DNA of 51,003 nt, from positions 1-51,003 of the forward strand of contig JAUCBJ010004960.1 of NCBI GenBank assembly GCA_032718475.1, in the 5' to 3' direction. Position numbers and translations under genes: made by a program. The number at the start of each line of letters is the position of its first letter. The stretch's first letter is position 1. The notes beneath the pieces are model-generated. The model did no database searches. It was given only the letters and a program-made list of their open reading frames with translations, and was not told where the DNA came from. The stretch comes from Nemertoderma westbladi. Lineage: Eukaryota; Animalia; Xenacoelomorpha. Positions 4,073 through 48,275 of the stretch are shown one piece after another.

Positions 4073-4157
4073 ATGCTAAGGAAGTCTATGGAATCTAGTA
4101 ATGGATCGAACGAGATATACTATACAACAAACATACATTCCTAAGTATATTTGGTTG

Positions 4158-4163
4158 AATAAA
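4158..4163 (+). terminator. Candidate polyadenylation signal (AATAAA) of gene A
   Basis: First AATAAA after the stop codon, about 100 bp before the satellite. The AT-rich context makes this weak. Confidence 0.35.
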
Positions 4164-4266
4164 TTGTTTTATACTAAAAGATATACTTACAAACCGGGTC
4201 TGCCCAGAATATTTTACATTTTATTGATTAGTTGATTGTAAAAAGTAATAAGACTGGAAATTATGT

Positions 4267-16200: not shown

Positions 16201-19200
16201 TTAGAGTAGCTAGCATTGGTTCGACTTCGAATCGTTAAATTAGAGTAGCTAGCATTATTGGTTAGACTTTGATTCGTTAAATTAGAGTAGCTAGCATTAT
16301 TGGTTAGAGTTCGAATCGTTAGATTAGAGTAGCTAGCATTGGTTCGACTTCGAATCGTTAAATTAGAGTAGCTAGCATTATTGGTTAGAGTTCGATTCGT
16401 TAAATTAGAGTAGCTAGCATTGGCTAGACTTCGATTCGTTAAATTAGAGTAGCTAGCATTGGTTGGAGTTCGATTCGTTAAATTAGAGTAGCTAGCATTG
16501 GTTCGACTTCGAATCGTTAAATTAGAGTAGCTAGCATTGGTTAGAATTCGAATCGTTAAATTAGAGTAGCTAGCATTGGTTCGACTTCGAATCGTTAAAT
16601 TAGAGTAGCTAGCATTGGTTCGACTTCGAATCGTTAAATTAGAGTAGCTAGCATTGGTTCGACTTCGAATCGTTAAATTAGAGTAGCTAGCATTATTGGT
16701 TAGACTTCGATTCGTTAAATTAGAGTAGCTAGCATTATTGGTTAGACTTCGATTCGTTAAATTAGAGTAGCTAGCATTGGTTAGAGTTCGAATCGTTAAA
16801 TTAGAGTAGCTAGCATTGGGTAGACTTCGATTCGTTAAATTAGAGTAGCTAGCATTGGTTAGACTTCGATTCGTTACATTAGAGTAGCTAGCATTGGTTC
16901 GACTTCGAATCGTTAAATTAGAGTAGCTAGCATTATTGGTTAGACTTCGATTCGTTAAATTAGAGTAGCTAGCATTATTGGTTAGACTTCGATTCGTTAA
17001 ATTAGAGTAGCTAGCATTGGTTAGAGTTCAAATCGTTAAATTAGAGTAGCTAGCATTGGTTAGACTTCGAATCGTTAAATTAGAGTAGCTAGCATTGGGT
17101 AGACTTCGATTCGTTAAATTAGAGTAGCTAGCATTGGTTCGACTTCGAATCGTTAAATTAGAGTAGCTAGCATTGGTTAGACTTCGAATCGTTAAATTAG
17201 AGTAGCTAGCATTGGTTAGACTTCGATTCGTTAAATTAGAGTAGCTAGCATTATTGGTTAGACTTCGATTCGTTAAATTAGAGTAGCTAGCATTGGTTAG
17301 AGTTCGAATCGTTAAATTAGAGTAGCTAGCATTGGTTAGAGTTCGAATCGTTAAATTAGAGTAGCTAGCATTATTGGTTAGACTTCGATTCGTTAAATTA
17401 GAGTAGCTAGCATTGGTTAGAGTTCGAATCGTTAAATTAGAGTAGCTAGCATTGGTTAGACTTCGATTCGTTAAATTAGAGTAGCTAGCATTGGTTAGAC
17501 TTCGATTCGTTAAATTAGAGTAGCTAGCATTGGTTAGACTTCGATTCGTTCAATTAGAGTAGCTAGCAGTGGTTAGAATTCGAATCATTAAATTAGAGTA
17601 GCTAGGATTGGTTAGACTTCAATTCGTTAAATTAGAGTAGCTAGCATTATTGGTTAGACTTCGATTCGTTAAATTAGAGTAGCTAGCATTGGTTAGAGTT
17701 CGAATCGTTAAATTAGAGTAGCTAGCATTGGTTAGAGTTCGAGTCGTTAAATTAGAGTAGCTAGCATTGGTTAGACTTCGAATCGTTCAATTAGAGTAGC
17801 TAGCAGTGGTTAGAATTCGAATCATTAAATTAGAGTAGCTAGGATTGGTTAGACTTCAATTCGTTAAATTAGAGTAGCTAGCATTATTGGTTAGACTTCG
17901 ATTCGTTAAATTAGAGTAGCTAGCATTGGTTAGAGTTCGAATCGTTAAATTAGAGTAGCTAGCATTGGTTAGAGTTCGAATCGTTAAATTAGAGTAGCTA
18001 GCATTGGTTAGAGTTCGAATCGTTAAATTAGAGTAGCTAGCATTGGTTAGACTTCGAATCGTTCAATTAGAGTAGCTAGCAGTGGTTAGAATTCGAATCA
18101 TTAAATTAGAGTAGCTAGGATTGGTTAGACTTCAATTCGTTAAATTAGAGTAGCTAGCATTATTGGTTAGACTTCGATTCGTTAAATTAGAGTAGCTAGC
18201 ATTGGTTAGAGTTCGAATCGTTAAATTAGAGTAGCTAGCATTGGTTAGAGTTCGAATCGTTAAATTAGAGTAGCTAGCATTATTGGTTAGACTTCGATTC
18301 GTTAAATTAGAGTAGCTAGCATTGGTTAGAGTTCGAATCGTTAAATTAGAGTAGCTAGCATTGGTTAGACTTCGATTCGTTAAATTAGAGTAGCTAGCAT
18401 TATTGGTTAGACTTCGATTCGTTAAATTAGAGTAGCTAGCATTGGTTAGAGTTCGAATCGTTAAATTAGAGTAGCTAGCATTGGTTAGACTTCGATTCGT
18501 TAAATTAGAGTAGCTAGCATTGGTTAGACTTCGATTCGTTAAATTAGAGTAGCTAGCATTGGTTATACTTAGATTCGTTAGATTAGAGTAGCTAGCATTG
18601 GGTAGACTTCGAATCGTTAAATTAGAGTAGCTAGCATTGGTTAGATTTCGATTCGTTTAATTAGAGTAGCTAGCATTATTGGTTAGACTTCGAATCGTTA
18701 GATTAGAGTAGCTAGCATTGGTTCGACTTCGAATCTTTAAATTAGAGTAGCTAGCATTATTGGTTAGAGTTCGATTCGTTAAATTAGAGTAGCTAGCATT
18801 GGTTAGACTTCGATTCGTTCGATTAGAGTAGCTAGCATTGGTTCGACTTCGAATCGTTAAATTAGAGTAGCTAGCATTATTGGTTAGACTTTGATTCGTT
18901 AAATTAGAGTAGCTAGCATTGGTTAGACTTCGAATCGTTAAATTAGAGTAGCTAGCATTATTGGTTAGACTTTGATTCGTTAAATTAGAGTAGCTAGCAT
19001 TGGTTAGACTTCGATTTGTTAAATTAGAGTAGCTAGCATTATTGGTTAGACTTCGAATCGTTAGATTAGAGTAGCTAGCATTGGTTCGACTTCGAATCGT
19101 TAAATTAGAGTAGCTAGCATTATTGGTTAGAGTTCGATTCGTTAAATTAGAGTAGCTAGCATTGGTTAGACTTCGATTCGTTCGATTAGAGTAGCTAGCA

Positions 19201-19714
19201 TTGGTTCGACTTCGAATCGTTAAATTAGAGTAGCTAGCATTATTGGTTAGACTTTGATTCGTTAAATTAGAGTAGCTAGCATTATTGGTTAGAGTTCGAA
19301 TCGTTAGATTAGAGTAGCTAGCATTGGTTCGACTTCGAATCGTTAAATTAGAGTAGCTAGCATTATTGGTTAGAGTTCGATTCGTTAAATTAGAGTAGCT
19401 AGCATTGGCTAGACTTCGATTCGTTAAATTAGAGTAGCTAGCATTATTGGTTAGAGTTCGATTCGTTTAATTAGAGTAGCTAGCATTGGTTAGACTTCGA
19501 TTCGTTAAATTAGAGTAGCTAGCATTATTGGTTAGAGTTCGATTCGTTTAATTAGAGTAGCTAGTATTGGTTAGATTTCGAATCGTTAAATTAGAGTAGC
19601 TAGCATTGGTTAGATTTCGAATCGTTAAATTTGAGTAGCTAGCATTGGTTAGACTTCGAATCGTTAAATTAGAGTAGCTAGCATTGGTTAGACTCGAATC
19701 GTTAAATTTGAGTA
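4267..19714. repeat. Satellite DNA array, 39-bp monomer with a 42-bp (+TAT) variant, about 390 copies
   Basis: Consensus GTTAAATTAGAGTAGCTAGCATTGGTTAGACTTCGA(T/A)TC repeated head-to-tail with no spacers; more diverged monomers at both edges. Confidence 0.98.
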
Positions 19715-23541: not shown

Positions 23542-23625
23542 TACTCAATCTATAAATTTTGTAATGCCGATACAATATTAAACATAAGTTGTTATAATTG
23601 AACAACAAACTTTGCCCCAATTACA

Positions 23626-24472
23626 ATGAAATCATTACTGATATTACTGATACTAACTGATGTTATTATGGGGTTCAAGTATAATGGATATCAACTAGTC
23701 GAACTAGATGGATCTAAATTTACTAGAGAATGTTTAATTAAAGAAGACAGAGACTCTATTGCAGTGAAAGTTGATTTTGTTATTGAAGAGGTTAGCGAAT
23801 TAATAACGGAAGCTATTTCCGATGTACTGGAATTGTATGTTACTGCTATGGATGATAATGGTAACAGCATACGTGTGAATAATGCAGCAAACTCCAAAGG
23901 AGATGTTTGTAGAAACGGTTACAATGTTATCCCTTGTGACGAATGGACTACAGCAGAATATATAAGTAGCAACACAGTCGGAGCTGCAGGAAGTATAACT
24001 GTTGGGTTGAATCCTCCTGTTATTGAATTTCTACCGGAGTTATTGGAGATATTAATACGACATTGGATTAAAAATTATAAAGTTATAAATCTCCAAAAAA
24101 ACCCAGACATATCCGATCAGTCAGCTTACCCACTTATAATAACTCTCCCACCACAATGTAAAGCTGATAATGATCCAGAGTGTAGCTGCGATGTACCGAG
24201 TTGTACTTATATAGAAGGCAGTTCAGCTACATTAAACTGTAAGTTATCAGATTGGGTACCGGTACCGGTAGCTGGAAGTACATCAGGAGATTCTAGATGG
24301 AGTTGGTATAGTAACGGAGCTGCTATTGGTGGAGTCGTAACTGAACCAGGAGATACACTGAGTATAAACAGAGATCTAAGTCGTGGAGACAATGGGAGAG
24401 AGTTTATATGTAAGGCGAGGAATAGAGCTATAGAAGTGGATAAATCCTGTACCACTACGATCGTAGTTCAAT
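23626..24472 (+). CDS. Gene B first coding exon: signal peptide + unrecognised ~155-aa N-terminal domain + Ig-like domain
   Basis: ATG followed by hydrophobic MKSLLILLILTDVIMG; Ig motif EGSSATLNC..WSWY..LSINRDLSRGDNGREFICKARN; strong donor CAAT|gtaagt at 24472/24473 (phase 1) at the domain end (IVVQ). Confidence 0.85.
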
Positions 24473-25119
24473 GTAAGTTTGAGATATCCACTAAAGGTTA
24501 TATTATGTCACAATATACTGTATTTAGATACATACTATCAGTGTCAGTGAACATCACACTGCATTTCTGTCACGGACTTATGCATTCTGAGGAAGCCAAG
24601 CCGGAGAAAAGACAAAGAGTGAATACCAAAATGGGGAAAGAAAGGGTGGTAGTTAAATGTAGAGAGACTCCACGGTGTGGTACACCAGATTAACGTTACA
24701 AGTGATTCAATTGGATACAAAAATATAATCAGCAGAAACTACTTCAATAAAATTCCTAGTTAATTTTTCATTAACTAAGTTATTAAACCAAGATATAAAG
24801 TTTGGGTTTCTATGTAATTTATTTAATTCTTGTATTTTTGTATATATATTTAGTGATTTAAAATTCACATGGTAGAACTCGTAGAGCACACCAAATTAAG
24901 TATATAAACCTAAAAATTACAGAATACCAAATAATTAAGTAGGGCCTAACAGTTGTAAAAATTACGCTAATAAGGCACAAAATGCACATAATTAATATTG
25001 AGAAAAAAAAATTATAGTAAAAATATACATTGAAAATTGTGCAAAAACTGGCTAATTCTTCTGTTTAAATGGACAATGCAATGAAAGAAATGTAGTCCAT
25101 TTAATTTATTTGAATACTT

Positions 25120-29600: not shown

Positions 29601-30614
29601 TTTTTTTTCATTTTTTTTTTCATTTTCATTTGTTTTATTTACTTCAAGCATTGTTACAGTATATATATACTTATAATTGCACATTTTATTTAATGTGAAT
29701 TAAAAACTGACAAAGTTATGTTGATGAAGTAGGACGCCGCCTTGTCGCAATGCGAGTTGAGTGGCGGTCGCCCTAAAATGTGAAGCCTATGGATGATATG
29801 ATAATGAAGATGATCAGATCTATGCAACACCATCTGTTTATAAGCCCAAACTACACCCCCCCCCCCCTCACCCCCGGGTCGTCACTCCAGATACTCCAGC
29901 CCATTGTAGTCAAAACTCAATTTTAATATTGGTTATGCTGTATTATTTGCAACTGCAAAGTAGTACTTATATGAACGGTTTTTCATGTTTGAATAATTCG
30001 TTAGTTAAATTGTTTTTAAATAGTCCTTTAGAATTAATGGTACATATATATTCCGGAATATTATTCCACAATTTTGCCCCAGCGTATGCAAGAGATGCCT
30101 GGCCGAGTGTTAGTTGTTTCCGAGGTATAAAAAATTTGTTTGTTTCTGCGGCTCTTGTATGATATCGATGAATCTGTCCTACACGTTGAAAAGATTTTGA
30201 AAAGTCAGTAACTTCATATTCATAGAAAACGGAATGCATTAGTAGACCTAATTGTAGACAGTGTAAGTGCTGAATCGGTAATATACGTAAATTATGGTAA
30301 ATTGGAAATGAATGGCTTTGGTTATCAGAATAGGTGATGCACCTTAAAATTTTATTAACTTTAATACGAATTTTTTGTATTTGACTTTGTTTGGCTCGAC
30401 CCCAGACTATTAAGCAATACTGGATATATGGGTGAACGAGGGAGTAGTAAAGTTGCTTTAAAGTATTAAGAGAAAACAGATGCCGTAATTTATAAAACAA
30501 TCCTGAACATTTTGATATTTTTTTTAAAACAAACTCTATATGTGCTTTCCATGTTACATTAGCATCCATTATTACACCTAGATATTTAATCTGTTGCACT
30601 TGTTTCAACCTTGT
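29601..30614 (-). mobile_element. L2/CR1-group (Crack/Daphne-like) LINE, 3' part: RT C-terminus, 3' UTR and tail
   Basis: ORF 29967-30608 has KYLGVIMD..W..HI, LKQLYYSLVHPYIQYCLIVWG, H.YHTR, YAGAKLWNNIP. The minus-strand tail is AATAAA followed by ATGAAAA/poly-A repeats ending at 29601, next to TSD TCTGTACCA (29592-29600). Confidence 0.88.
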
Positions 30615-31796
30615 TGTAAAAGCTTTTGCGGAATTAGCTGGTTATTTTCCCCGTAAAGTACTCTGTAGTTGGTTTAACAGGCATAAAAGGCCGTGTCCTT
30701 ACTGTACTGGTGTTTTAGTGGACATAAAAAGCCATCTCTTCTGTATGTGTACTTTAGCGGACATAATTAGTAATTCTATGACGCAATGCGCTAGATCCTC
30801 TTGAAACAGTGTAGTTACTATGACGACAGCTAACAGCTGAGCTGTACGCGTGTAGTTTTTTCCTTGTTCTCTGGTGTTTCTTTGTTCGGTCAACCAATCA
30901 GAGCGATTCTCTTGCTTTTTGGACAGAAACCTCCGAGAAATCGCGCAATGCATTATGGGTCAATGTTTACATTTTTGTCCTGAGCCTAGAAGACCGGCTT
31001 TTGGAATCTCTGTGTTTTTCAGTCTTTAGCCCAACATTAGTAGGCTTAATTATAGAACGTATATCTGTTATCATTACTCACATATCTTAACATAACATAA
31101 TCATAACCATTCATACCTTAACATTTGTACTGCTATTTACTGTCGGTTATTCATTATATCGGTTGATGGAATATTATTATATTTGGAATACCGATAAATA
31201 ATTACAAAACCCTCAATCTTCTTGATATACTGAAGGTAAGAGAGACCGGTTACATATAACGATTGCGACTTACATTAAAGTGGTTCTGAAATGAATCTAA
31301 TGCTATTTCATAGGCACTACATGTATTGGTTGTTGTTCTCTTTATATGTGATTAAAATTAGCGAAGGTCGGCAGATCGGTGTGCAGCATTGTGCAGTATT
31401 GTGTATGATTGTGACTGTTAACAAAGCATCTCCTAAAGAATGCGCCATATACGTGAATCTATAGCCATCCCGTTGTGTCTAGTTTAAGTCATAACTCTGT
31501 TTACATATTTAGAGCGCCACGTCCTAAAGGAACTGTTAATATTTCCCGAAAGTGAATAATATTTGTCAGAGATTATATATTACGATCAGTCGAATAATAC
31601 AGTAGGCCTACACCGCAATACGGTTAGGCTTCCGAATCCAGTCTCCCGGGTATATCCACCGGGTGAATGGTCGCGCATAGACTGGCTTCGGCTAATATAG
31701 TGTATCAAATACTCGTCATAGGCTAAAGACGATTTATTATCTAGAAGACATCCCAATTTGGCAGGTTAAACTGCTAAAGGTCTGAAAGCGCGAACA
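30615..31796 (+). repeat. 5' LTR (1182 bp)
   Basis: TGTAAAAGCTTTTGCGG...GAAAGCGCGAACA; about 10 substitutions and 1 indel against the 3' LTR by eye. Contains CCAAT (~30894), Inr-like TCAGT (~31019) and a donor-like AAG|GTAAGA (~31236). Confidence 0.97.
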
Positions 31797-31808
31797 ATAA
31801 CAGATATA
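31797..31808 (+). promoter_or_regulatory. Non-tRNA primer-binding site ATAACAGATATA, complementary to LTR positions 31060-31071 (candidate self-priming PBS)
   Basis: Abuts the LTR-terminal CA, lacks TGG, and is the exact reverse complement of TATATCTGTTAT at 31060-31071 and 45690-45701. The function is inferred. Confidence 0.65.
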
Positions 31809-32076
31809 GCTTCTGTATTGCAGTAGGCAATAAAGTTGAAGTACCGGCCAACCGGTACCTAGTAGGCCTGACTACCTAACCAATCAGACCGGTACCTACA
31901 GCAGTACAGGTACAGCAGTATTATTCGAATTTGATAATTATATACCGGTAGGCCTTAATAATTAATCAGGGACGGCCGCCCTGGTTTTTTATTGAGATTT
32001 TACTTGTTTCTGTCAGGTTTTATTTATTTGTAGGTTAATATTGAGCAGAAGACATGTAAGCCTGCTCAGATTGTAC

Positions 32077-32656
32077 AGATAATTTGTAGGCTGGACTGTT
32101 GTCTGACTATCGTTAAGTCTGAAAGGACTGTAGTGTGTGTAGAGCGTATGTCCGAAAAAGTACCAGTTAGGAAAGTAGGGGCTTCCAGTGCTGTGAGGTA
32201 AACCCCCTCGAAAGAATAAGTCGTACTACTCGGTTAGAACGCATACTAACTAACCATTTCGGAGTCTGCATATACTGTAGTTTATTTAGGCTTGATAGTA
32301 GTCTGCCAGCGTTTGGTTTGTACTTTGTTTGTGTAGTCTGTACGGGTAGCGTAATATTTCTTATTTAGATAATTTGTAGGCTGGATTGTTGTCTGGCTGT
32401 TGTTGGGTCTGAAGAGATTGCGGTGTGTGAGGAGTGTATGTCCGATAAAGTGCCAGTTGGGAACGTAGGGGCTTCCAGTGCTGTGAGGTAAACCCCCTCG
32501 AAAGAATAAGTCGTCCTACTTGGTTAGAACGCATACTAACTAACCATTTCGGAGTCTGCATATACCGTAGTTTGTTTAGGCTTGATAGTAGTCTGTCAGT
32601 ATTTGGTCTGCATTTTATTTGAGTAGTCTGTACGCGTAGCGTAATATTTATTATTC
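32077..32656 (+). repeat. 290-bp tandem duplication in the BEL 5' leader
   Basis: agataatttgtaggctgga.tgttgtctg starts at 32077 and 32367; the shared core ggggcttccagtgctgtgaggtaaaccccctcgaaagaataagtcgt is identical. Confidence 0.9.
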
Positions 32657-33970
32657 AGAGTTTATGCGATTATTCGCAACATTCATATCCCCAAGTTTAT
32701 TCCTACAGTAATTGTGCTTGTTATATATACCGTTATAGTTAAACTAACCCCGGTACTACATCAGGGCTGCTTGGTGTAGGTCAAGACTGGTGATTTTGTG
32801 CCCCGGTCACTCCAGCAGATACTGTGGTTCTTTTAGCTGTTCAAGTATTTTTAACTACTGATTATTAGTTGTATAAGTACTTGTACCTAATTTAGGGTTT
32901 AGTGTACAGTACTTTCCGAAGGTAATTAGTGTGTAGGCAGTATATTTGTGTTGTAAAGTGGTTAATAGGCACGTTGGTTCTGGTAGACCGCGGTAGTTAA
33001 CTTCTAGGTAGGAACACTCCGTGATACATAACGTAGTACTTATAGCGATACGGCTATAAGTCGTCAGACGGTGGTATTTTTTCTATCTGGACAACGCAGT
33101 ATATTTACTACCGTAGTACCCTGTCTGTTTGTAATAACCAGATATTCTAACCCTTTGTTAGACTGGTTTGTAGACTTCTTGTAAAATTACCCTAAAAATT
33201 CGTACTTGTAATTTTTGTGTTTATTTAGAGATTGTAATCTCACCCCGAATTGTATGTAATTTGTAGTATTAAGTAACTTAGGTAAATTAGAATTATTTGT
33301 TTTAGTGTCCAACAAGTAGCACTTCACTGAGAGCGCACAGCTTCTGTGTAGTGACTCTTTCCCAGAAATAATAACATTTATTTCAAATATTGACAAAACC
33401 CATTATACGGGTATATATATTATAAATCAACTCAAACCGATTTATAAAATAGTAGGCCTGTCTTACAATAATTAGGTCTAAATATCAGTTGGACTACTGC
33501 TTACATAACGGTAATAAAGTAAAGTAAAGTAACCAAGTAACCCCCTAAAATTCAGAAATTCAATTATTTAAAATAATTGACATACCGGTATTTACAATAG
33601 GCTTATTATATTTATTTCTATAAATTTAGGCTAAATTATATACCGGTATTCTGTGATTAATTCTAGTCTGTAATTATACTTATATATATACATTACAAGT
33701 GTAAGCTGTATACCGGTATTCACGATAGGCCTATCATATATTTATATATATTTACGCTAAAATTATATACCGGTATTCTGTGACAAACCTAGTCTGTAAT
33801 AATACTTATATATATACTATAAGCATACCGGTATTCTAATATATTATATATATATCACGCTACACTGAGTAGCAGTATCGGTAATTAATTACTAGGCTAA
33901 CAGTGATACTGAATTACTAGACTTGCTTAAACTGTAATATAGCAGTAGGCATTCAACTGTACAAACAAAC

Positions 33971-36900
33971 ATGTCTGACACAAAGCAAAACCTGTCAGAC
34001 AGTCTCCTAGATACAACCATCTGTGACCCAGACAGGAGTGTGGAACGTGTGAGACCGAAGTTCAACTCACCTCCTACTGTAAGAAAGATCATCCCTCCAG
34101 TAGTAGTATCAGACCCTAGGCTAGTCCAACACCGTAGGTCTATCATAGGCACTCGAGCTCAGGTCAAGCGGGACCAAGAAGCAGTGGAACAGCAGCAACA
34201 CTCTAGCCGAGAACTTATTTCTCAGCGGACCGACAGCTCCAGTGGTGAGGATACTGTAGAGCTGACACCCGAGCACGGAGCAAAGATGACAGATGCGGTT
34301 TATTCGGATCCCCTTCTCATCTTTCCTGCAGCCGTACTCACTAGGGTATTGATTGCGGTGGAGGAACACCAGATTGATTGGGCGAGAAGTAAGCGATCGA
34401 CTAAGGATAGTTATGCGGGATACACAAGGGAAGAACTGAAGTCTATTGTCGAGTCGCAATGGAACTTCCCCGGACCCGGACTCCCATTTGACTTATCGGA
34501 AGCTGCCTGGGAAGACATACACAGGATGGGAGTAACAAAGGAAACCATCGATCCAGCTGTGTGGAAGAGGTCCACAGCAGGATACGTACAGGGATTCTTC
34601 AGCTCTTTGGAGAGATTAGAGGAACAACTGTTTCGACAACCCCAAGGACCTCAAGAGCAGGGAGAGCTGCTTTATCAAGTTCGAGAAAGAATTCTAAGAA
34701 TCAGACTAATCCTATCGGCCTTTGAGGAGGCTTCGAAAAGAAGACAAGACACGTCGTTGCAAGTTGCCGTATAGACTTGGTTACATCGGGTGAGTCTCCA
34801 AGTTCAAAAAACTGCCCCGTGGAAATCTCAGTTAGATGAGCGCTCAACCCTTGGAGAATCAACAGACGCTACCTTTTCCCAAGTGGAAAGTGAAGCGACA
34901 GCAGAGAAACCGCATAAGAGGGATGCTATTGACATCTATCTGTCAGACTATCAACGCTTTGTAGGTGACGAAGAGTTGAGGAGACGGCTGGATGGACTTA
35001 GCCCTAATAGTGAAGGAGCCAAGCTTGTGTTGGACGCAATCGATGCGGATATGAGAGCTGCGAACCAAGCTAAATTTGATGAACGCCTCCGCATCGCTAG
35101 AGTCCAAGAAGAACAAGTAAAGAAAAAACGTATAGAAGACAGAAAGACAGCGGCAGTGGCAGCAGCAGTAGCAGCGGCAGAAGCGAAAAGAAAAGCGGCA
35201 GCGGCAGCAGCAGCGGCAGAGGTAGAAGCGGAAAGAAAGGCGGTAGAAGTGGAAAGAAAGGCGGCAGCGGCAGCGGCAGAGACAGAAGCGGAAAGAAAGG
35301 CGGTAGAAGTAGAAAGAAAGGCGGCAGCGGCAGCGGCAGAGGCAGAAGCGGAAAGAAAGGCGGTAGAAGTGGAAAGAAAGGCGCAGTGGCAGCGGCCGAA
35401 GCAGAAAGAAAGGCGGTAGTGGCAGCGGCAGAGGCAGTGGCAGAAGCAGAACGGAGGGCATCTGAAGAAACAACCCAACTAGAGTTGGAAAATCTTCAAG
35501 AGAATCAAGACTGCATAAATAAACAGTTAACAGCTAGTCAAATGCAGATGATGAGTCGATCTACTCCCAAAAGACAGGGATATACATCATCTGAGGAAGG
35601 CAATACCACCGATCCTGAAGGCGGAGGAAATCGATCTCGCCTAAGCAGACGTAGAAGAATGTCCCACCGTCAGAAATTGCCTGATTTGCCCCCAGCTGTT
35701 AGAAGGCAACTAGCTAGCACAGACTTAGGTAGTACAGAACCCACACACCAAATAATTAAAATAGAAAGACTCCCTACTATAGTAGATGAGCCTGAAATAA
35801 TTAGGCCTGTTCTCGAAGCCACCCCTTCGGTGATAGAGACACCTGTACTCCCTGAACCTACCTCTAAATTCCCTCTGCACAGCACTAAGCTACCTGTGCC
35901 CAGCAGAACGGCCCATGAGACAGTTCATGTCCTAGACTCCGAGCGAAATATTAATGATTTGTCGCCCGTTGTCCCTCGTCCGCCCGCTACAACGTTGGCG
36001 GCTCCCGCTTCGGCGGTCGAGTGGGTGGATGAGAGACGGCGGGGGATGGATCTCCTGCTCGGGCAGATGCAGGAGACTGTTAAGCAGTTCAAGGGCACAG
36101 TAAGGGAAAGTAGGTTAGAGTTGCAAGAAGTGCAGCAAAGTATCGCGTTAGAACGCGATAAATTAGTAAATACAAAAAAGGGTATACCACCACCCCCGGT
36201 AACAATGTGTCAACCTGTTAGGTCTGAAGTATCTCATGCGCAAGGTGTGGAGCCTACACGCATCTATACTGCTAGTGAAGTAGAAACTCCTATAGTGAAC
36301 CCTATTAAGGGTAATTATAAACCTGTTGACAATGATATCCCATATAGACTTGATAATAATCCGAGAAATTTATATACCGATAACTCGATATTAAATAACA
36401 CGATGGCCCAAGAAAATTTTACGCGTCAAATGGCTAGAACCGAAGCCCGTCAAGCGGTAAAGGTGGGAGAGATCGTCAAGTTCAATGGAGATGAGATGAA
36501 ATGGTTACCTTTTAATGAATATTACAAAGATAACATACAGAACTCTGTGCTATCAAATGGAGAGAAACTTAGATTCCTCATCGAGTGCTTGGAAGGATCT
36601 CCCAAGTTAATGGCGTTAAAGTTTATTGGACATCCAGATGGATTAAGACAAGTTTGGGATACCCTAAACATCAGGTATGGTAATAGGAATAACATAGCTA
36701 GGTATTTGTATGCAAAATTGGTAGCGCCCCGAAAATTCATTAGCAGCGGCATTATAGAGTTTTCCGATGAAATTCAGGAGATCTGTAGACAATTAGATTG
36801 GCTAGTTAAGTCTCATGAATATCAGAGTTCTATGGTTATTGGCGCCGTGGCCTCTACTTTACCGAAGGGTGGAGTAGGTACACGCTGGGATAAGAAAGTG

Positions 36901-39900
36901 TTATATATGATGGAACAACAACGACGAGACCCTACCATGGCTGATCTCATGGCATTCTTAGATGGAGAAGTGAAATTACAGCTCCTAAAGCAGTCCAGAG
37001 AGAAGACACCGGAAAACAAGGTAAGTGAGAAACCCGTTTCTAGGAGAAAGGTAACACCAGTGTGTTATACCGACGACGGCGAAAGCCAGGCTTCTCAAGG
37101 AGAGGACAGCGGGAAAGACACTGAAAGATCTTATTATGTCAACAAAACGCCCAAAGACGTAAGTAAATTCAGGTCTCGAACCAAGTACAGGAGAGAACAG
37201 GTAAGAAAAACCCCTCCTACGTCTCCTAAGAGAATTCAGGTAAGAAAGCCCGAAGAAAGAACGAGTGTGTACAACGTTACTCAAAATAAGGTAAGTAACA
37301 TCAAACCGAAATGTGCGCTGTGTGACGGGCCCCACCGTTTGAATGTGTGTGATTGATGGATTCCTAAAGAAATCATTAACGGATAGACGGGAAGTCATGT
37401 GGGATAAGCGGTTGTGTTATAATTGCCTCAGACAAGGACACCAACGACGAACCTGTTACTCCGACACAAGGTGTGCAAAGTGCGGTGCGAAACATCATAT
37501 CTTGTTGCACACTGATTTCGAGCGAAACAGCCAGAGTCAGGTAAGTGATTCCGAATTACATGTCCAATTCAGTGATGTGAACGACACTGACCAAAGTTCT
37601 GAGAAGGAAGGATTCTATACGGACGAATTCTCCGACGAAAACGAATCCTGTTACATGATAAATACCGCAGTGTATCGAGCACTTACGTATGAAAAGGACA
37701 CCGACAGCGAGATCCCCCTAACTACTTCTGACCGACAACCATCTTGGAAAGCACCAACTTCCAATGTAGGAATCCGAGAATTTCCTGTAGTACAGTTAAG
37801 GGTCCACGGACCTAAAAGGAGTTATATAGTGAACGCCCTCCTTGACTCCGGTAGCACAGGAACATTCATCGACAAAGAACTAGCCGAAGACATCTTTGCT
37901 GGACAACCCAAGTTCCGAACTAAGCTAAACATGTCAGGAATTATGCAGGTTTGGAAATATACCGTAATAGCGGATTATTATGTAGGCGCGTATAAGGTCA
38001 GTAAAAATGGTGGCAATAAAGAACTTCGCTACCAGCCAAGTGAAACCTTATAACTGGGATGAGGACGATTTCACCCAGCAGCTTGAAATACCTAGATTCA
38101 ACACCGATTACCCTGGAGTGCAAATACTCATCAGTCAAAACGCGCATGAAGCGCTCGAGACATTGGAGAAACGGCCTGCTCAACCGCAACCACTACAAGC
38201 TTATGCGGGAAGAACTAGAGTGGGTTGGTACTTTACTGGCCCTTCCCGTAGAACTCTCATGGAAAGATTACCGAAAGATCAGGTATATCAAGTAAGAGAA
38301 TGGGAAGTTGAGAGCAGTGAGTTAGACGATCCAACTGAGGGAACACCATACTCCTCAGATAATGACGATGTCCACCAACTCTTCGACGAGGAGAATACCA
38401 TTGATCTCCTTAAGGAAAACGAGACTTGGCAAAACCAAGTGAACTTATGTCAACTCCTTCGTCCATCAGAACGTGACGACTATAACGACGAACTGAATGA
38501 CGTCATCGAACGTTATAATGCCAAGACTCGGGATGAACACGCCGTACGATTCTTTACTCAAGAGGTTGTAGAGCCCAATTCCTACGATAAGGCCCTATCG
38601 GTAGAAGAAGAAAGAGCCAAGCAGATCCAAGAGACAACTACACGTTTTCTTAAAGATCAAGGTAGATATGAAATCGGTCTACCTTTCCGAAAGCGAGAAC
38701 CAAAGTTCATAAACAACAGACCCTTGGCAGGGAAAAGAATTGCTCAACTACATCGACGCCTTACGGCAAATTCTTCAGCTAAAGAAATTTATCAAACGCA
38801 GTTGAAGAAATTTATTAGCAAGGGATATGCGGAGCGAGTACCGGAAGAAACACCTATAACTGAGAGAACGTATTATTTAACTCACCATTACGTTCCCAAA
38901 CCCGGTAAACCCCATGAGGTACGAGTAGTGTTTGACGGCTCCACCCTCTACATGGGCCAATCCCTCAATTCTGAATTGTTACCCGGACCCAACTTACTCC
39001 AATCCTTGTTGGGAATACTCTTAAGATTACGTCAATATTCAATCGCTTTCGCCTCAGATATAGAAGGCATGTTCTTACAAGTCAAGGCGCTGGATAGGGA
39101 TCGAGATAGCCTACGATTTCTGTGGTGGCCTGAAGGAGACCTCAACCAGAAACTGGTGGAGTACTGGATGACCATCCAGGCTTTTGGGATAATCTCAAGC
39201 CCTTCAAACGCCTGTTCAGTGGTGCGCACCACTGCGGATGACAACCGAGAAGCCTGCTCTAAAGAGGTGATTGACAACATCAAACGGGATATATACATGG
39301 ACGACAATCTAAAGTCCCTTCCATCAGTCGAAGAAGCCATTGATGTCGCTAAAGGAATGGTAGAGTGCTTAAAAAGAGGTGGATTCCGATTAACTAAATT
39401 CACCAGCAACTCCCGTTAGTTTCTGGAGTCGATCCCGGTAGAAGATCGAGGAGCGAAAGACCTAGATCTAATCAAAGATGATCTTCCAGAAACCAAGACA
39501 CTTGGTTTGAAATGGGACACAGAGAGAGATATCCTGTTTTTCCAGCTAAAACAGCGAGATAATCCAGTTCGGACTGAACGGATTTGTTTAAGTATCCTGA
39601 GCACTTATTTCGATCCATTGGGATTTATTAGCCCAGTTATATTGATTGCTCGGAGTTTAGTACAACAAATGTGGCTTGAAAACCACTCATGGGACGATCC
39701 ACTTAAGGGAGAATTATTAAAGAAGTGGATGAAATGGGAAGATTCTCTACCAGCCATCGAGAACTTTATAATTTCCCGTTCATATTTTGGTCATGTTCTC
39801 CCTACGTATTCCTATCAACTCCATGTGTTTGGAGACGCCAGCGATATGGGAATAGGTATAGTAGCCTACCTAAGAGTGGAAACTCCAGATGGAATCAAAG

Positions 39901-42179
39901 TCGCCTTGGTTACCTCTAAGGCATTGATAAACAACAAGTTGAAAGTTCCTCGAGCAGAGTTAAAAGCGGCTCTATACGCTACAGCCATCGGCCGGAATGT
40001 AACAGAACAGATCGATTATCCACTGGAGAAAACTGTCTATTGGACCGATGCTTTACTCGTGTTGGAGTATATAACCAATGAAGTCTGTCAGTTCAGTGTC
40101 TTCGTTACCAACAGAGTAGCCATTATACTTAGTCGCACGAAGATGGATCAATGGAGACATTGCCCCGGAACGATTAATCCAGCAGACATCGCCTCCAGGG
40201 GAGCAACTCCACAAGAACTGATAGATACTCCAGACTGGTTAGGTGGACCCGACTTCCTCTACAAAGAAGAAGAAGAATGGCCTCCTCATCTTACTACGGC
40301 AGAGATTAGACTGGCCAAGGGAGCGGAGAAAGTCAAACCTAAAACTCGGGCGAGTAAATCGAAGTTATTTAAACCTATGGTAGATCTGTCTGTACTACAC
40401 ACTTCCGGAGACGACGCTTTGGATCCGAAACCCACAGCCACAAATAAGTCTGTTGTAGAAATCCGTGAAAAGGATTGGAAATCTGGAATACCAGACGTCT
40501 CGCAAGGACTCTCACCTCTCCTGCAGAGAGCGATACATCACTACAGTTCCTGGAATCGGCTCTGTAAAGCCGTTACATATTTAAAACGATGTTTTCATCA
40601 TCACTACTCCGGGACGAAGACCAATAGTGATACCGCTCCTCTGACATCTGTGCAGGTCCATGTTGTTAAAGATCTTTCCAAATATAAGATATCCGACAGG
40701 TTTCTGAATGAGAAGATCAGTTATCAGGAGCATGAAGAAACCAACAAGCAGATGCTGAGACTCCTGCAATGCTATGAGGATTCCGATAAGTATTTCCTGT
40801 TGTTGAGAAATCCACAGATGCGCTTAAGGGATCGTTTCTCTAGCACAATGATAGATGGGTTGATACGTGTTGGAGGAAGATTAACGAATGCTCCATTATC
40901 CTTTGACACTAAGTTTCCCATACTCATTAGAAATCTTGAGATACAAGTCAAGATGATTGTAGATGTTCACAGCAAACTTTATCATGCTGGTAGAGAACGA
41001 GTTCTTAGCGAAATTCGAACTCGCTATTATTTTTATAAACCCCGTAGAGCTCTGAACCAAGTTCTTAGGAACTGCATACCCTGTAGGAAAGCATTCAGTA
41101 GGCCTTTAACACAGCGAGAGGCAGAATTACCTAGGGAACGAGTAAGCTTCTATGAACCACCCTTTACTAATACCGGTGTAGATTTATTTGGCCCTATTGA
41201 AGTATATCGTGCTAGGACTATAGTCAAGAGATGGTGTGTCATCGTTGTTTGTATGACTTGTAGAGCTATCCATCTCGATATGGTGAACGATTTATCTACC
41301 AACAGCTTCCTATTAAGCTTACGACGACAGATCGCTCACTTTGGAACCAGTAACACGATGAGATCTGATAAGGGAACAAACTTCATTGGTGCCAACAATG
41401 AAATCAAAGCTTACGTCAAAGATTGGAACCAAAGACAGGTGGACGATCAGCTAAGGGTAACAGCGTCTAGCTGGACCTTCAACGCTGCCGACGCCCCTTG
41501 GTGGGGAGGAAGTTGGGAGAGATTATTTAGAAGTGTGAAGACTGCATTTCACTTTATAGTGCCGTGCCGTGCGTATCTCACCGACTAACTTTTGTGGACG
41601 TTAATAGAGGAAATCGCCGCCTATCTCAACGAGAGACCGCTTATGCTAGTCTCATCGAGTCCCGATTCCCTGGAAGCGCTAACACCCACGCACTTCCTAC
41701 TGAAGAAACCTGTAGCCATGCTCCCACAATCGGAAATCACAGATGGAGACGAATACTGCCGGCAAACTTGGCAACTCATGCAGTTGTTATCCCGTCGTTT
41801 CGCTGACCATTTCGAAAAACATTATCTGCCCACGCTACAACTTCGAACTAAGTGGTTTGCGCAGCAAGAAAACGTCAGCGCTGGAGACATGGTCCTTATT
41901 GTGGATGCAGATCTTCCACGTAAGAGGTGGCAGACAGGTCGTATCATCGAGACTCACATCTCGGATGACGGTTTGGTGCGATCGGTAGAACTCGTCGTCA
42001 TGCGACGTAACTTCAAGAAACCGGGAATTGTCTTCGAGACACAGCAGCTCAATCGCCCAGTTGGTCGTTTATGTTTACTGGAAAGAGACAGAGAACTCTC
42101 CGGAAACTATGGAAGACAAGATACCCTTCCCACGACCACCTCCCTAATCCAACAAACATCTAGGGACTCCCCAGCTTAG
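33971..42179 (+). pseudogene. gag-pol: BEL/Pao gag-pol polyprotein (about 2,730 codons), disrupted by 3 stops and 3 frameshifts
   Basis: Gag core KFNGD..W..F..LSNGEKLRFL..CLEG; three Zn knuckles (CALCDGPH, CYNCLRQGH..C, CAKCGAKHHILLH); protease ALLDSGS; RT RVVFDGS, SLN..LLPGPNL, DIEGMFLQV, YMDD; RNase H LHVFGDAS, PRAELKAA, WTDA, NPADIASRG; integrase H..H..C..C, GVDLFGP, SDKGTNF, WWGGSWERL. Stops at 34772, 39417, 41586; frameshifts near 35383, 37350 (tgat duplication) and 38007-38050. Confidence 0.95.
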
Positions 42180-43809
42180 CAGCGTCTGGAGTGGGTGTGT
42201 GACCATATTATTTTATATTCTTATTATTTTATATTTATGTATGTATTATTATGTAATTTTATTATAATCGTTTTCTTTAATTTTATTTAGTAGAATGTTA
42301 TTTTAGCGATTATTTAGTAGATTAGTGCAATATATATTCGCGTTTATTACTTAATTACTTATATATTATATATTTAGTGCGACGGCGAGAAATAATTCTT
42401 TTTCTCTTTCCTTACTGTCCGTATCATATTATAAATACGTGACTACAGTAAGATGAAATGTCCGTACTTATTAAAGTACAATAAAGCTCCTACTATATTC
42501 AAGTATTATTGGTAAGTAGAGTATTAGGAATGCAAAGTTCAGATCCTCGTGTCTCGGCTAAACCAAGCTCTGGGTAGACCTTGGAAACGACTTGCCTATT
42601 CTCACTGACATTGCTTCCTGCGATATTGCTCTCATACCGTATATTAAATAATACATATAGTAGCGTGATGTCACTTTAACAGTAGCGTACAACGCAAAAT
42701 AAATCTGTTAAACCCTTTGACCATCTGTAATTCTAGTCGATTAAGATATCGCGGCACCCACTGTTATACTTGAAAGACAAAATTCTAGAATCAGTGGTTA
42801 ACGTCCCCAGACAAGTTCTGGAATAAACTGGTGCCCATCCTAAATATTAACTATTAATATTTATAAAATCAGTCAAAATTTAGATCCTTTAAAATTCTAG
42901 TCGATTAAGATATCGTAGCACTTACCGATACTCTTAAAAAGACCAATTTCCTAGAATCAAGGTTCCTAGTCCCCAGACATGTTCTGGAACAAAATTGTGT
43001 CTATTTAATATTAAATAATAAAATTTACGGGAATAAATTTAAATTCATATTTTAATGAATTTGATAAATTGTCATTTTTATACAATTTATAACATTCCCA
43101 AAATTCCATAAATTAATAGATCATGGGAGCGGAGATTCACCCTATTAAGTATATTCGTGTGCGAGAATCTCCAATATATAGTCAATAGCCGATAAAATTC
43201 ATAAAATCATGTATAGAGAGGATATTGACCATTAAAGAATTACTATTAAATAGCATCCCAGATCTGTATGCATGAGAATTACCCTAATTCTACCGCTAGC
43301 TTTCCATAATGTCACCATGGCAACAACCACGCTAGAATTAGAAGTGAGTTAAAAGAACAATAAAGCTTGCCCATTGAATAGCATAAGGAATAAATAGCAC
43401 ACTGCTAGTATCCCAGGATACCCAATAATAACGTGGCATTCTGGAAGGCACTGACTAACGGACAAATGCCCCGAATGTGCGCGGTTTGTGACAGTTGTGT
43501 GGAATTTGTGCGTTTATAGGCAAATGTTACTACTAAAGTGTGTTTACAGTAGCGAGTCGCAATTGTGAAAGTAGCCCTAACTCTCCAGTAAGAACCTGAA
43601 GTAAATCTAAGCCTTTGGGACGGACGGTGGAGTGACTCGCGCTGGTTGTTGTTGTCGTTGTGCAGCTACGACGTTGGCGATAGGCACATCGGCGAAAGTA
43701 CACCTGCGCTGAGGATCTTGCGCTGTCCGGGGGCCGAGAGGGGTAGGCAGCGACGCCCGCTAGCCTAAATATAAACTCATTATAATATTGATAAACTCAT
43801 ATAGCAGAT

Positions 43810-44256
43810 ATGACTGAGTTGATAGAAGATGATCTTGGTATCAGGGAGCGATATATTCTACCTTTACAAGCGTTTGTTGAAAACTTGATACGCTGCGACG
43901 CTGGTCCAACTACTACAGAGGACGATGGTCATTATATCGAACCGCCAATGTCCCAGGAGCAACTTACGCATGAATTGGACTATAGAAAATTCACCGCTCG
44001 CTATACGCATCGTAATGGTACGTATATGGACTTCTTAACTACCGGCCATCCTATCGATTTACACGATACGGACGATATCGACACCGAAAGGGAAATGGTC
44101 CTATTTAAATATCATACCCAGCGGAGTTGGAACGATAAATTGAGAATCGAATGCAAAAATTCTATTCGAAATCGACTCGAAGGAGAAGACGTTAAAGAAC
44201 CGGATAAACGCGGTAACTCCAACGTATATTTGGAATTCTTGAGAGAAACATTGTAA
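43810..44256 (+). CDS. Orphan 148-aa ORF in the post-integrase region of the BEL element, function unknown
   Basis: ATG-initiated with protein-like composition, followed by further open stretches to ~45170; no motif I recognise. Confidence 0.4.
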   Translation: MTELIEDDLGIRERYILPLQAFVENLIRCDAGPTTTEDDGHYIEPPMSQEQLTHELDYRKFTARYTHRNGTYMDFLTTGHPIDLHDTDDIDTEREMVLFKYHTQRSWNDKLRIECKNSIRNRLEGEDVKEPDKRGNSNVYLEFLRETL

Positions 44257-45237
44257 AACCGAATAAATATCACCTGCGTTTCCCCTACAAGACGTGCGTC
44301 TTTGGTATTATTACGATGAATGCCCTAGACCCAACCAACAAACGGAAAGACATAAACATCCGTAGAGACGTTGCTTTAAACACGGTTTTACTCGCTATAT
44401 TTACGGGAGTTTCGAGCGACACTTGTTCGATGTATCACCTACGCTCGCTCGATTCAAACGATCCTTAAATAAACCTATGATCAGAGTTCCGGAATACTCG
44501 GTCAGACCTCTTCACTCCCTAGTGAGAACCCAGACTCTCGACCCTAATAGTATCAGGGATCTTCCCGAACTGTACTCACTGTTCAAAGATCTAGTGTTAC
44601 CCGAACAGTTGATCGGTGGCACTCCGGTAGTGGGCTCACTAAATATTCGCCCATCTTACCTAGCCGGATTGAGACGCGGATATTTAATATCGCCATTCAA
44701 CCGTATCATCGTCCCTGTTTAACCCGATACAACCTGTCACCGAGGCGGAGGCGAGAGTTGTACGAAACGCGTTGGACACTACTCGTCAAAAGAATGGAAA
44801 ATGAACCTACAATTGTTTAGAGAAACGTAAATTGCAGCAGCAAGTCCAAGCGGTAAACGAATTAATTTTATCCCAGTTCGATCAGGAAATTCAGAATCTC
44901 TAAGAAGATATCGAACTTGGACGACCCTATTCTCTGCAAGAGTTTTGGACGAACGCATCCAACGATAAGCGGAGGAAAATCAGCTCGAGGAGAAGCATAT
45001 CGAAATGGACGATACACCGATCGTAATCCTAAACCTTCTGATGCAATTGTATTGCACCCTTCACCCAGGAGTTACAGCCCTCCTAGTAAAGTGGCTCGCC
45101 CCAAAGAGAAAAGGACTCTTGCTAGCCTCAAAAAACTGCGTAAACGCCGTCCGCGTAAGAAAGACTAACTGTTTAGAGTATTTTTATATTTTAGAAACTG
45201 TGATTTTTATATTTTATAGACTAAAATCCCATTTTCT

Positions 45238-45245
45238 GGGAGCGG
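45238..45245 (+). promoter_or_regulatory. Short polypurine tract GGGAGCGG before the 3' LTR
   Basis: Purine-rich octamer directly 5' of the TG of the 3' LTR, preceded by a T tract. Confidence 0.6.
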
Positions 45246-46426
45246 TGTAAAAGCTTTTGCGGAATTAGCGGTTATTTTCCCCGTAAAGTACTCTGTAGTT
45301 GGTTTAACAGGCATAAAAGGCCGTGTCCTTACTGTACTGGTGTTTTAGTGGACATAAAAAGCCATCTCTTCTGTATGTGTACTTTAGCGGACATAATTAG
45401 CAATTCTATGACGCAATGCGCTAGATCCTCTTGAAACAGTGTAGTTACTATGATGACAGCTAACAGCTGAGCTGTACACGTGTAGTTTTTTCCTTGTTCT
45501 CTGGTGTTTCTTTGTTCGGTCAACCAATCAGAGCGATTCTCTTGCTTTTTGGACAGAAACCTCCAAGAAATCGCGCAATGCATTATGGGTCAATGTTTAC
45601 ATTTTTGTCCTGAGCCTAGAAGACCGGCTTTTGGAATCTCTGTGTTTTTCAGTCTTTAGCCCAACATTAGTAGGCTTAATTATAGAACGTATATCTGTTA
45701 TCATTACTCACATATCTTAACATAACATAATCATAACCAGTCATACCTTAACATTTGTACTGCTATTTACTGTCGGTTATTCATTATATCGGTTGATGGA
45801 ATATTATTATATTTGGAATACCGATAAATAATTACAAAACCCTCAATCTTCTTGATATACTGAAGGTAAGAGAGACCGGTTACATATAACGATTGCGACT
45901 TACATTAAAGTGGTTCTGAAGTGAATCTAATGCTATTTCATAGGCACTACATGTATTGGTTGTTGTTCTCTTTATATGTGATTAAAATTAGTGAAGGTCG
46001 GCAGATCGGTGTGCAGCATTGTGCAGTATTGTGTATGATTGTGACTGATAACAAAGCATCTCCTAAAGAATGCGCCATATACGTGAATCTATAGCCATCC
46101 CGTTGTGTCTAGTTTAAGTCATAACTCTGTTTACATATTTAGAGCGCCACGTCCTAAAGGAACTGTTAATATTTCCCGAAAGTGAATAATATTTGTCAGA
46201 GATTATATATTACGATCAGTCGAATAATACAGTAGGCCTACACCGCAATACGGTTAGGCTTCCGAATCCAGTCTCCCGGGTATATCCAGCGGGTGAATGG
46301 TCGCGCATAGACTGGCTTCGGCTAATGTAGTGTATCAAATACTCGTCATAGGCTAAAGACGATTTATTATCTAGAAGACATCCCAATTTGGCAGGTTAAA
46401 CTGCTAAAGGTCTGAAAGCGCGAACA
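45246..46426 (+). repeat. 3' LTR (1181 bp)
   Basis: Direct repeat of 30615-31796, followed by TSD CTTGT. Confidence 0.97.
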
Positions 46427-46612
46427 CTTGTTCCTCCTATATTCAAATTACGATCGCAAAATTTATTTCCGTATAAAATATATTCTGTTTTCTTCACGTT
46501 TAACGTTAATCGATTTGACACGAGCCATTCCTGGATTTTGATTAATTCCCCATTAACTTTGTCAATCTGTAATTGACAGGCAATTGACAGGCAATCTGTA
46601 ATTGACAGGCAA
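46427..46612 (-). mobile_element. 5'-truncated end of the same L2/CR1-group LINE, split off by the BEL insertion
   Basis: The minus strand reads IDKVNGELIKIQEWLVSNRLTLNVKKTEYILYG..NIGGT and rejoins in frame to RLKQVQQIKYLGV at ~30610 once the BEL element and one TSD are removed. Second TSD copy TCTGTACCA at 46613-46621. Confidence 0.88.
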
Positions 46613-47294
46613 TCTGTACCAATCTAGTCCGAGGTAAAAAGTAGTTTTTGTTTGTAAACGAACTTTAAATAATTTCATTTATAACATTATTATTAAAAAC
46701 CAAGTTGAGATACTAATCACTACCAATAAGTAAACAAATATTTGAAATCAAATCAAATCAAGATTCTCATCAAAATATGAACTGATTGACAATATTCGGA
46801 ACGGCCGTAGTCAACAATAAAGGCAATCTGTCAACTAAAATTGCATTTGTTTCCACTAAACTATCCGAAGTTTCAACGTAACTTATAAGTTTATAACTCG
46901 TCCCGCTGGGTAAATATGTCGTAAAATAACTTGGTAATAATTTGGCATCACCGCCAATAGACTATTTATTTTATATCCTATAAACCAAACTTTTGGGACA
47001 CCAAAGAGTGGGTGGGTACAAATTTATCCATAAATTTATATTATTTTGTATTTTTTACAGTATTACTTATTTGCTTAAAGTTAGATCATCAAATGAAACC
47101 TTATTGATCTATATGGGCTTACATTAACCACTACAGGGTAATTATTTATTTAGATAAGCAACAAAGAAGTGGCAAAAATATTCGCGTTTAAAAAACTCGC
47201 TATTACAATATTTAACAAATTAACATTATTATCATTATGAATCTAAAAGTTTTACATCTAAGTTATATTATTATTATTAATATTATTGTTACAG

Positions 47295-47900
47295 ATTTGC
47301 CGTCTAGGATAAACATTAACCCCAACGATGCGATTACAAAGAAAAAAGGCGAAACATTGGAATTAAAATGTTCGGCAGACGAATACAATGTGGAACTAAA
47401 CCCAAGTTGGTCCTGGTACGTTGGTACTAAAGATGTTACTGGTGATGCAGCTACAGTTGCTGAACCATCTTCATCAACATTTACACTAGACCCTTTACGC
47501 GCAGACGATGGAGGTGATTATAAGTGCGAGTTTACCGGTAGTTACAGCAACGGTGGGGAAGGGAGAAAAGAAAGTCCTGCGGTAACGGTAACTGTAGAAT
47601 ATTGTGATCTGGACCTGAGAGTTTCTGGTACTTCTTATGATGGAGGTGATTCAATACAATTAAATAGAAGTTTAGAAGTTCATAACGACCCAATAGAGGT
47701 AAAGTGGATTCCAGTTGGAGATGGATGCAATATAGGTGTTGGTTATATTTGGAGTGGCGACTTCGTAACCGGTGGAGATGAAGTTAGGAATATCGATATA
47801 AATAAAAGATCTTCAGGGATTTACACAACAACAGCCGAATATACGTTTTATGATTCATCAACTATTACAGAGTCATTCACTATTGAGTTAATAGTTCAGT
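47295..47900 (+). CDS. Gene B second coding exon: one canonical Ig domain + one short degenerate Ig-like domain
   Basis: Acceptor gttacag|at and donor CAGT|gtaagt; 606 nt, phase 1-1. KGETLELKCSA..WSWY..FTLDPLRADDGGDYKC, then YIW..INKRSSGIYT..FTIELIVQ. Confidence 0.87.
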
Positions 47901-48275
47901 GTAAGTAACAATAAACTACTGTAAATATTACCCTCCATCACTGTTAGTAGAACAGGAGTCATTCACTATTGAGTTAATAGTTCAGTGTAAGTAACAATAA
48001 ACTACTGTAAATAATACCCTCCTTCACTGTTAGTAGAACAGGAGTCATTCACTATTGAGTTAATAGTTCAGTGTAAGTAACAATAAACTACTGTAAATAT
48101 TACCCCCCATCACTGTTAGTAGAACAGGAGTCATTCACTATTGAGTTAATAGTTCAGTGTAAGTAACAATAAACTACTGTAAATATTACCCTCCATCACT
48201 GTTAGTAGAACAGGAGTCATTCACTATTGAGTTAATAGTTCAGTATAAGTAACATTAAACTACTGTAAATATTAC
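47870..48275 (+). repeat. 86-bp tandem repeat (4 full copies + 1 partial) spanning the exon/intron boundary
   Basis: Unit starts at 47870, 47956, 48042, 48128 and 48214 (GAGTCATTCACTATTGAGTTAATAGTTCAGTGTAAGTAAC...). Confidence 0.95.

Follow-up and report, generated by a model that had tools for sequence, protein, structure and literature searches.

The window, by which we mean the whole stretch of 51,003 nt of Nemertoderma westbladi DNA analysed here, contains a BEL/Pao LTR retrotransposon of 15,812 bp at positions 30615-46426. Its main parts are as follows, with the evidence for each in brackets.

30610..30614, + strand: left target-site duplication CTTGT (flank comparison)
30615..31796, + strand: 5' LTR, 1182 bp, TG...CA (99.07% identity with the 3' LTR)
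33938..42176, + strand: gag-pol region in seven stop-to-stop pieces, with DUF1759, Cys-His boxes, PR, RT (YMDD), RNase H, integrase and DUF5641 (Pfam and motifs)
45238..45245, + strand: polypurine tract (PPT) GGGAGCGG, C-interrupted (sequence)
45246..46426, + strand: 3' LTR, with a second copy of the 12-mer described below at 45690-45701 (LTR-LTR match)
46427..46431, + strand: right target-site duplication CTTGT (flank comparison)

The two LTRs align over 1182 columns with 10 mismatches and one gap, and CTTGT is present at both flanks, indicating that the ends of the element are secure and that the insertion is young. The LTR-LTR match and the duplication also fix position 31797 as the first base past the LTR-terminal CA. 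The gag-pol region is broken by in-frame stops and frame changes into the seven pieces listed. Among the internal ORF pieces, matches to DUF1759, Peptidase_A17 and DUF5641 exceed the Pfam cut-offs, and the motifs follow the order PR-RT-RH-IN, confirming the BEL/Pao identity proposed in a first-pass annotation of this DNA. The same Pao-specific domains are found in the top protein matches of the element. Domain order, Pao-specific domains, TG...CA LTRs, target duplication and PPT thus all agree with the description of Belpaoviridae/Semotivirus (PMC8742986). The ORF encoding the integrase C terminus has no chromodomain match in Pfam, and the polyprotein is not of the Ty3/gypsy chromovirus type. 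The element does not belong to the Tf1/sushi group (Metaviridae, Ty3/gypsy chromoviruses), from which it differs by its Pfam matches and domain content. Its closest protein relatives are approximately 35% identical over the full query, with at most 41% identity among the matches listed.

Several other features of the window were observed. Between the integrase and the PPT, approximately 3 kb (42180-45237) contain ORF fragments and a 164-bp duplication; a Pfam search of four ORFs of this region gave no match, and the region could be a decayed extra gene. The leader (31797-33970, 2.2 kb) contains tandem duplications of 290 bp and 126 bp as well as a number of strong splice acceptors; palindromic motifs recur near 31600-31960, at the LTR end and in the leader. 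Outside the element, a very long array of a 39-bp unit (approximately 260 copies) occupies 4131-19500 and retains long open frames on the minus strand. The element is flanked on either side by + strand ORFs with Ig and fibronectin-III domains (1509-2414, 23602-24690 and 47219-47908), and it is thus probably located within an intron of an Ig-superfamily host gene.

The region of interest comprises the site adjoining the 5' LTR, its complement within the LTR, and candidate signals for transcript start, splicing and polyadenylation.

31019..31024, + strand: TCAGTC, an initiator-like alternative candidate start; also a weak 3' splice site (sequence)
31060..31071, + strand: candidate self-primer, exact complement of 31797-31808 (sequence match)
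31233..31241, + strand: best predicted splice donor of LTR and leader; the intron would begin at 31236 (simple matrix)
31274..31356, + strand: ATTAAA at 31274 and again at 31351, two candidate poly(A) signals 3' of the primer (sequence)
31797..31808, + strand: primer-binding site without TGG, offset 0 after the LTR; predicted to be unpaired within the U5 domain as well as in long folds (sequence, folds)

According to the ICTV profile, BEL/Pao elements are primed by tRNA-Arg or tRNA-Gly at an 18-nt site and have genomes of 4.2-10 kb (PMC8742986), which agrees with the initial statement that the superfamily is normally described as tRNA-primed. The window element differs in both respects: it has a length of 15.8 kb, and no such 18-nt site is found, the nearest TGG past the 5' LTR being at 31982, 185 nt downstream. 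Because the family is placed by protein phylogeny, the missing tRNA site marks a BEL/Pao variant and does not exclude the element from this group. The sequence directly 3' of the 5' LTR is ATAACAGATATA (31797-31808). In the whole window, its reverse complement occurs only at 31060-31071 and 45690-45701, and the 12-mer is unchanged in both LTRs. The lack of TGG, the exact complement inside the LTR, and the start of the site right after the LTR-terminal CA (offset 0), which had all been noted at first sight, were borne out, and the 12-nt self-complement at the priming position is a real feature.

This match is the longest LTR complement within the 2174-nt leader, and only two LTR complements of at least 12 nt are present in the 13,449-nt internal region. 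Of 5000 dinucleotide shuffles of the LTR, 3 contained the 12-mer, and 6 did when any offset of 0-5 was allowed; the first-pass annotation had put the chance below 1 in 1000. A chance of approximately 1e-3 per element is attainable in a scan of many elements, so evidence from relatives is needed. The candidate primer is located 736 nt from the LTR end, a further difference from Tf1/sushi elements.

Self-priming has been demonstrated for Tf1, and Tj1, Tcn1 and TAR have been proposed to use it, in the accessible text of PMC4600332, PMC5341516, PMC7175516 and PMC6317226. In Tf1 it requires three duplexes, one between primer and site and two in which the sequences on either side of the site pair with parts of the LTR lying downstream of the primer (bioRxiv 10.1101/2022.12.06.519325, accessible part), and RNase H cuts off the first 11 bases (PMC7175516, accessible part). 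The window element resembles Tf1, Tf2, Tj1 and the Tf1/sushi group, as described in the portions available of PMC7175516 and PMC4600332, in having an 11-12-nt LTR complement to a site just past the 5' LTR and no tRNA site. For the TAR lineage (Houba, Osr-1) and Tcn1 chromoviruses, which belong to another superfamily and other hosts than the window element, self-priming was predicted from an LTR complement of at least 10 nt located 0-5 nt past the LTR (PMC6317226, accessible part); the corresponding values here are 12 nt and offset 0. The first-pass annotation had tied self-priming to Ty3/gypsy elements. This stands for Tf1, but self-priming had already been proposed for the plant Ty1/copia TAR lineage, and thus outside Tf1/sushi, in the available text of PMC6317226, so that the mechanism as such is not new. 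Hairpin priming has also been discussed as possibly ancestral (PMC3601003, in the part accessible). In full-text literature we found no report of BEL/Pao self-priming; subscription papers, repeat-database entries or supplements could hold one. By term counts, the BEL/Pao surveys PMC554778, PMC3118150 and PMC6238403 do not mention PBS, tRNA or priming, and the accessible text of PMC8220671 names the PBS only in general.

A TATA box is missing from the region approximately 30 nt 5' of 31060. A transcript start at A31061 would yield an 11-nt primer as in Tf1, and a start at A31021 would yield a primer of approximately 51 nt with 12 nt paired. AATAAA does not occur in the LTR, and its two ATTAAA hexamers are found 200-290 nt 3' of the 12-mer, making it likely that the RNA 3' end is well downstream of the 12-mer. 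Splice sites were scored with a simple frequency matrix. Given the strongest donor at 31236 and the strong acceptors of the leader, a spliced mRNA without the site is possible. A primer built by splicing was considered for the window element and rejected: the best spliced fit was at most 8 nt with poor splice sites, and none of the 14 best donors is upstream of 31060.

We examined the predicted fold of the LTR-leader RNA, in which the following segments take part.

31590..31600, + strand: U5 arm with 11/11 pairs to 31918-31928, predicted to close a loop around the primer site in long RNAs
31606..31629, + strand: U5 arm complementary to 31809-31828, a predicted Tf1-type third helix favoured only in short RNAs
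31671..31682, + strand: U5 arm predicted to pair with 31780-31793 just 5' of the primer site
31780..31793, + strand: 5'-adjacent strand of the helix bracketing the primer site (predicted fold)
31809..31828, + strand: 3'-adjacent strand, pairing from the first base past the 12-mer with 31606-31629 or 31895-31916 (predicted fold)
31895..31928, + strand: leader arms, the alternative partner of 31809-31827 and the partner of 31590-31600 (predicted fold)

The domain 31590-31835 has a fold z of -3.72 (0 of 200 shuffles equally stable), and both its MFE and its centroid structure leave 31794-31807 unpaired. The duplex on the 3' side of the site (31809-31828 with 31606-31629) has -25.8 kcal/mol, a value that was reached by 0 of 500 shuffles and by none of 301 leader 22-mers taken every 7 nt (best -25.0). 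The duplex on the 5' side (31780-31793 with 31671-31682) is not significant by itself (64 of 500 shuffles); of 36 folds, 25 give it a probability of 0.94-0.99 and the remaining 11 one below 0.6. The probability of the 3' duplex is 0.95-0.97 in the short domain, 0.00-0.10 in free folds starting at or before 31400, and 0.00 for any RNA extending past 31950, in which the downstream arm takes over. With primer and site held open, the 3' duplex has a probability of 0.42-0.93 in short RNAs starting at or after 31061, and of approximately 0 for a start at 31021. In RNAs extending past 31950, the 3' flank pairs with 31895-31916, and the 11-bp helix of 31590-31600 with 31918-31928 closes the loop. When the fold extends to 32000 or 32200, the site has a probability of 0.94 of being unpaired, and 31809 is again where pairing sets in. 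For nested folds that reach 32000 or further, the primer helix has a probability of 0, since its strands would have to cross those of the closing helix, a pseudoknot that the program cannot score.

Two alternative folds thus present the site, which is partly paired when the boundaries are intermediate; in these models, RNA length decides the partner strand in the 3' helix. The fold check suggested in the first-pass annotation had a divided outcome: the site is predicted to be open between two helices, as in Tf1, where LTR sequence downstream of the primer provides the helices on both sides (bioRxiv 10.1101/2022.12.06.519325, accessible part), but the Tf1-type 3' helix loses to the downstream arm in long folds. 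An exact Tf1 pretzel at the window element is possible according to the folding model, and the predicted competition for the third helix by a downstream arm is a difference from Tf1/sushi. What is new here is that in the predicted folds the site stays unpaired, bracketed by two helices in the manner of the Tf1 'pretzel'. A primer duplex lengthened by 7 bp upstream of the 12 bp (-21.0, 0 of 300 shuffles) was not taken as separate evidence, the pairing of the 3' flank with the LTR upstream of the primer not being significant (483 of 500 shuffles). Among 14 relatives tested for a third helix, none reached p < 0.01 (best 8 of 200 shuffles; the L012 site was indexed 3 nt early in this test).

The family is highly repeated in public DNA runs, with 14,768 contigs on 1.9 kb in run X1 compared with one long contig on the flank, where contig depth is not a copy number. 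Low contig depth at 30770-31025 was considered as a sign of a variable U3 and set aside, as such depth cannot rank parts of the element. The sequence adjoining the LTR is covered in 4 of 4 runs. An early concern was that sister copies might carry a normal TGG site that was deleted here. There was no sign of this: none of the 12 indels listed out of 146 is an insertion at the junction, and in run X4, which carries another organism label, two contigs with a diverged junction (3 of 12 positions differ) also lack TGG. None of the 40 substitutions listed out of 447 is informative on covariation of the two 12-mers. The contigs of run X4, which is only presumed to be RNA, contain no GT..AG joint.

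Relatives of the element were collected as 92 loci, of which 68 are from metagenomes and 24 are animal-type contigs inside prokaryote bins; they are distant, with 30-40% protein identity to the window element. These 24 BEL/Pao-encoding contigs (L069-L092) in GTDB prokaryote genomes are most likely animal host contamination, and one of them (L079) lies within a Wolbachia chromosome and has a target duplication. Viral contigs yielded no relative (8 and 51 pattern matches, none confirmed), and the junction pattern was found in 0 stretches of metagenome contigs. In seven loci the LTR end is defined by two LTR copies, four of them with a matching target duplication. Three of the seven (L001, L013 and L079) have TGG 0-5 nt past the LTR and a self-complement of at most 4 nt. 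The other four have no TGG at this place: L071 pairs 11 contiguous nt with its own LTR, and in L026 (12 nt, LTR 2079-2772), L075 (11 nt, LTR 999-1770) and L085 (11 nt, LTR 1484-1848) the pairing with the element's own LTR spans a predicted GT-AG intron bounded by textbook splice sites. For L085, the 11 nt are obtained under the looser acceptor filter and 8 nt under the stricter one. Hence, self-pairing of 11-12 nt is present in 4/4 TGG-less loci with defined ends (three of them spliced) and in 0/3 TGG-bearing loci.

When 33 loci, including L013, were scanned with the LTR end left free, eight more were accepted with 11-12 nt (six spliced, two contiguous). These matches weigh less because the search itself chose the LTR end. 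L003, L004, L012, L047, L072 and L073 reach 11-12 nt of pairing only if a predicted GT-AG intron within the LTR is removed. A 23-nt hairpin of L081, a candidate in L066 and a second 12-mer within the L073 LTR are not at the LTR end and were set aside; these rejects indicate that the search yields false positives when the end is free. When sites and LTRs were exchanged among 19 elements, at least 10 nt paired in only 3 of 342 pairs, two of the three between sister families, and the site of the window element paired at most 8 nt with the LTRs of other elements. The pairing is thus maintained with different letters across distant families, which amounts to covariation at the family level. The paired site begins with GT in 13 of 14 relatives, with AGT in L075 and with AT in the window element; the primers of relatives whose sites begin with GT would end in AC. 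A C-interrupted PPT like that of the window element is present in most self-pairing relatives.

Trees of RT-RH-IN were calculated from 91 rows with FastTree and from 48 of these with IQ-TREE, the 43 rows left out being mostly untyped or redundant. Four tRNA-type loci are on one side of a branch (0.98; SH-aLRT 100), and 15 loci labelled as self-pairing, three of them doubtful, are on the other side together with the window element. The window element has a long branch (1.34) and no resolved sister, and the locus closest to it in the tree, L002, lacks a 5' LTR that could be used. Given this long branch and an identity of no more than approximately 40% to any protein match listed, the side of the tree on which the element falls could be distorted. 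The trees are midpoint-rooted only and carry no direction of change. Self-complementary sites occur across the element's side of the tree, making inheritance within BEL/Pao more likely. Based on these sequence comparisons, self-priming was probably inherited within BEL/Pao and did not arise in the window element, contrary to the independent origin or acquisition envisaged in the first-pass annotation. It is likely that the trait is common by descent to a large BEL/Pao branch.

Taken together, we consider Tf1-like self-priming by the window BEL/Pao element to be the best reading, at a probability of roughly 0.72. Transcription would start at or shortly before 31060, and the 11-12 bases of the RNA that end at 31071 would anneal to 31797-31808. 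Cleavage just 3' of 31071, presumably the work of the element's own RNase H, would free a 3' end from which minus-strand synthesis could begin. The predicted U5/leader fold would hold the site open between two helices, and primer pairing would form a pseudoknot as in the Tf1 pretzel. The primer would be contiguous in the window element, and many relatives seem to build theirs across a splice junction. RNase H motifs are present, and a primer-cutting activity is putative. Of the proposal of tRNA-independent self-priming made initially, the position of the site, a fold presenting it and relatives with other letters are thus in favour, but start site and RNase H cleavage, which were shown for Tf1, are only inferred from Tf1 for the window element. 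Counting against it are the missing TATA box, the dependence of the third helix on fold boundaries, the non-significant third helix of the 14 relatives and a site that begins with AT where nearly all relatives have GT.

Other explanations of the 12-nt match have to be weighed against this. It is conceivable, if unlikely, that the match arose by chance or belongs to an LTR-leader structure with another role, such as packaging, dimerisation or control of translation or splicing, and that priming is by something else. The region is highly structured and contains a second perfect 11-nt LTR-leader complement (31590 with 31918), and an event of 1e-3 will occur in a large scan. However, the match begins directly at offset 0, no tRNA site lies close by, the predicted flanking helices end at the edges of the 12-mer, and the geometry recurs with other letters in TGG-less relatives and is absent from TGG-bearing ones. 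A second alternative is that a host RNA without a CCA end, a half-tRNA or another small RNA, acts as primer. Plant Ty1/copia lineages use half-tRNA-Met or half-tRNA-Ile, and such priming yields sites without TGG (PMC6317226, accessible part). A tRNA gene search of the window found none. We regard this explanation as improbable, since it leaves the exact LTR complement unexplained, and the sites of relatives differ from each other, each fitting its own LTR and not those of others.

A variant of self-priming would use the copy in the 3' LTR (45690-45701), at or near the RNA 3' end, either in cis or from the second RNA of a dimer. The 12-mer is unchanged in both LTRs, and there is no clear promoter at 31060, so that the 5' copy could fall outside the transcript. 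Yet an RNA end at 45701 is not predicted from the positions of the two ATTAAA hexamers and the lack of AATAAA. Raised as an option in the first-pass annotation, use of the 3' copy is now disfavoured, and we give it very little weight.

Returning to self-priming from the 5' end of the RNA, a broader scenario, on which we are evenly divided, is that tRNA priming was abandoned in favour of self-priming on an entire side of the BEL/Pao tree, independently of the same step in Tf1/sushi and in TAR. The window family, deep and on a long branch, would then have arrived by convergence at a Tf1-like pretzel in which the primer is contiguous and the 3' flank of the site holds an RNA switch, and in many relatives the primer would be assembled over a splice junction within the LTR.

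If Tf1-like self-priming by this element is correct, self-priming would have arisen in all three LTR-retrotransposon superfamilies, including one that is widespread in animals. It would bear on whether tRNA priming or self-priming came first, and on how often RNase H turns to cutting its own primer. With a repeated family and a predicted cut between 31071 and 31072, the proposal can be tested by RNA-end mapping alone. Self-priming would also explain BEL/Pao elements annotated as 'no PBS found', and such elements would escape control by tRNA supply or tRNA fragments.
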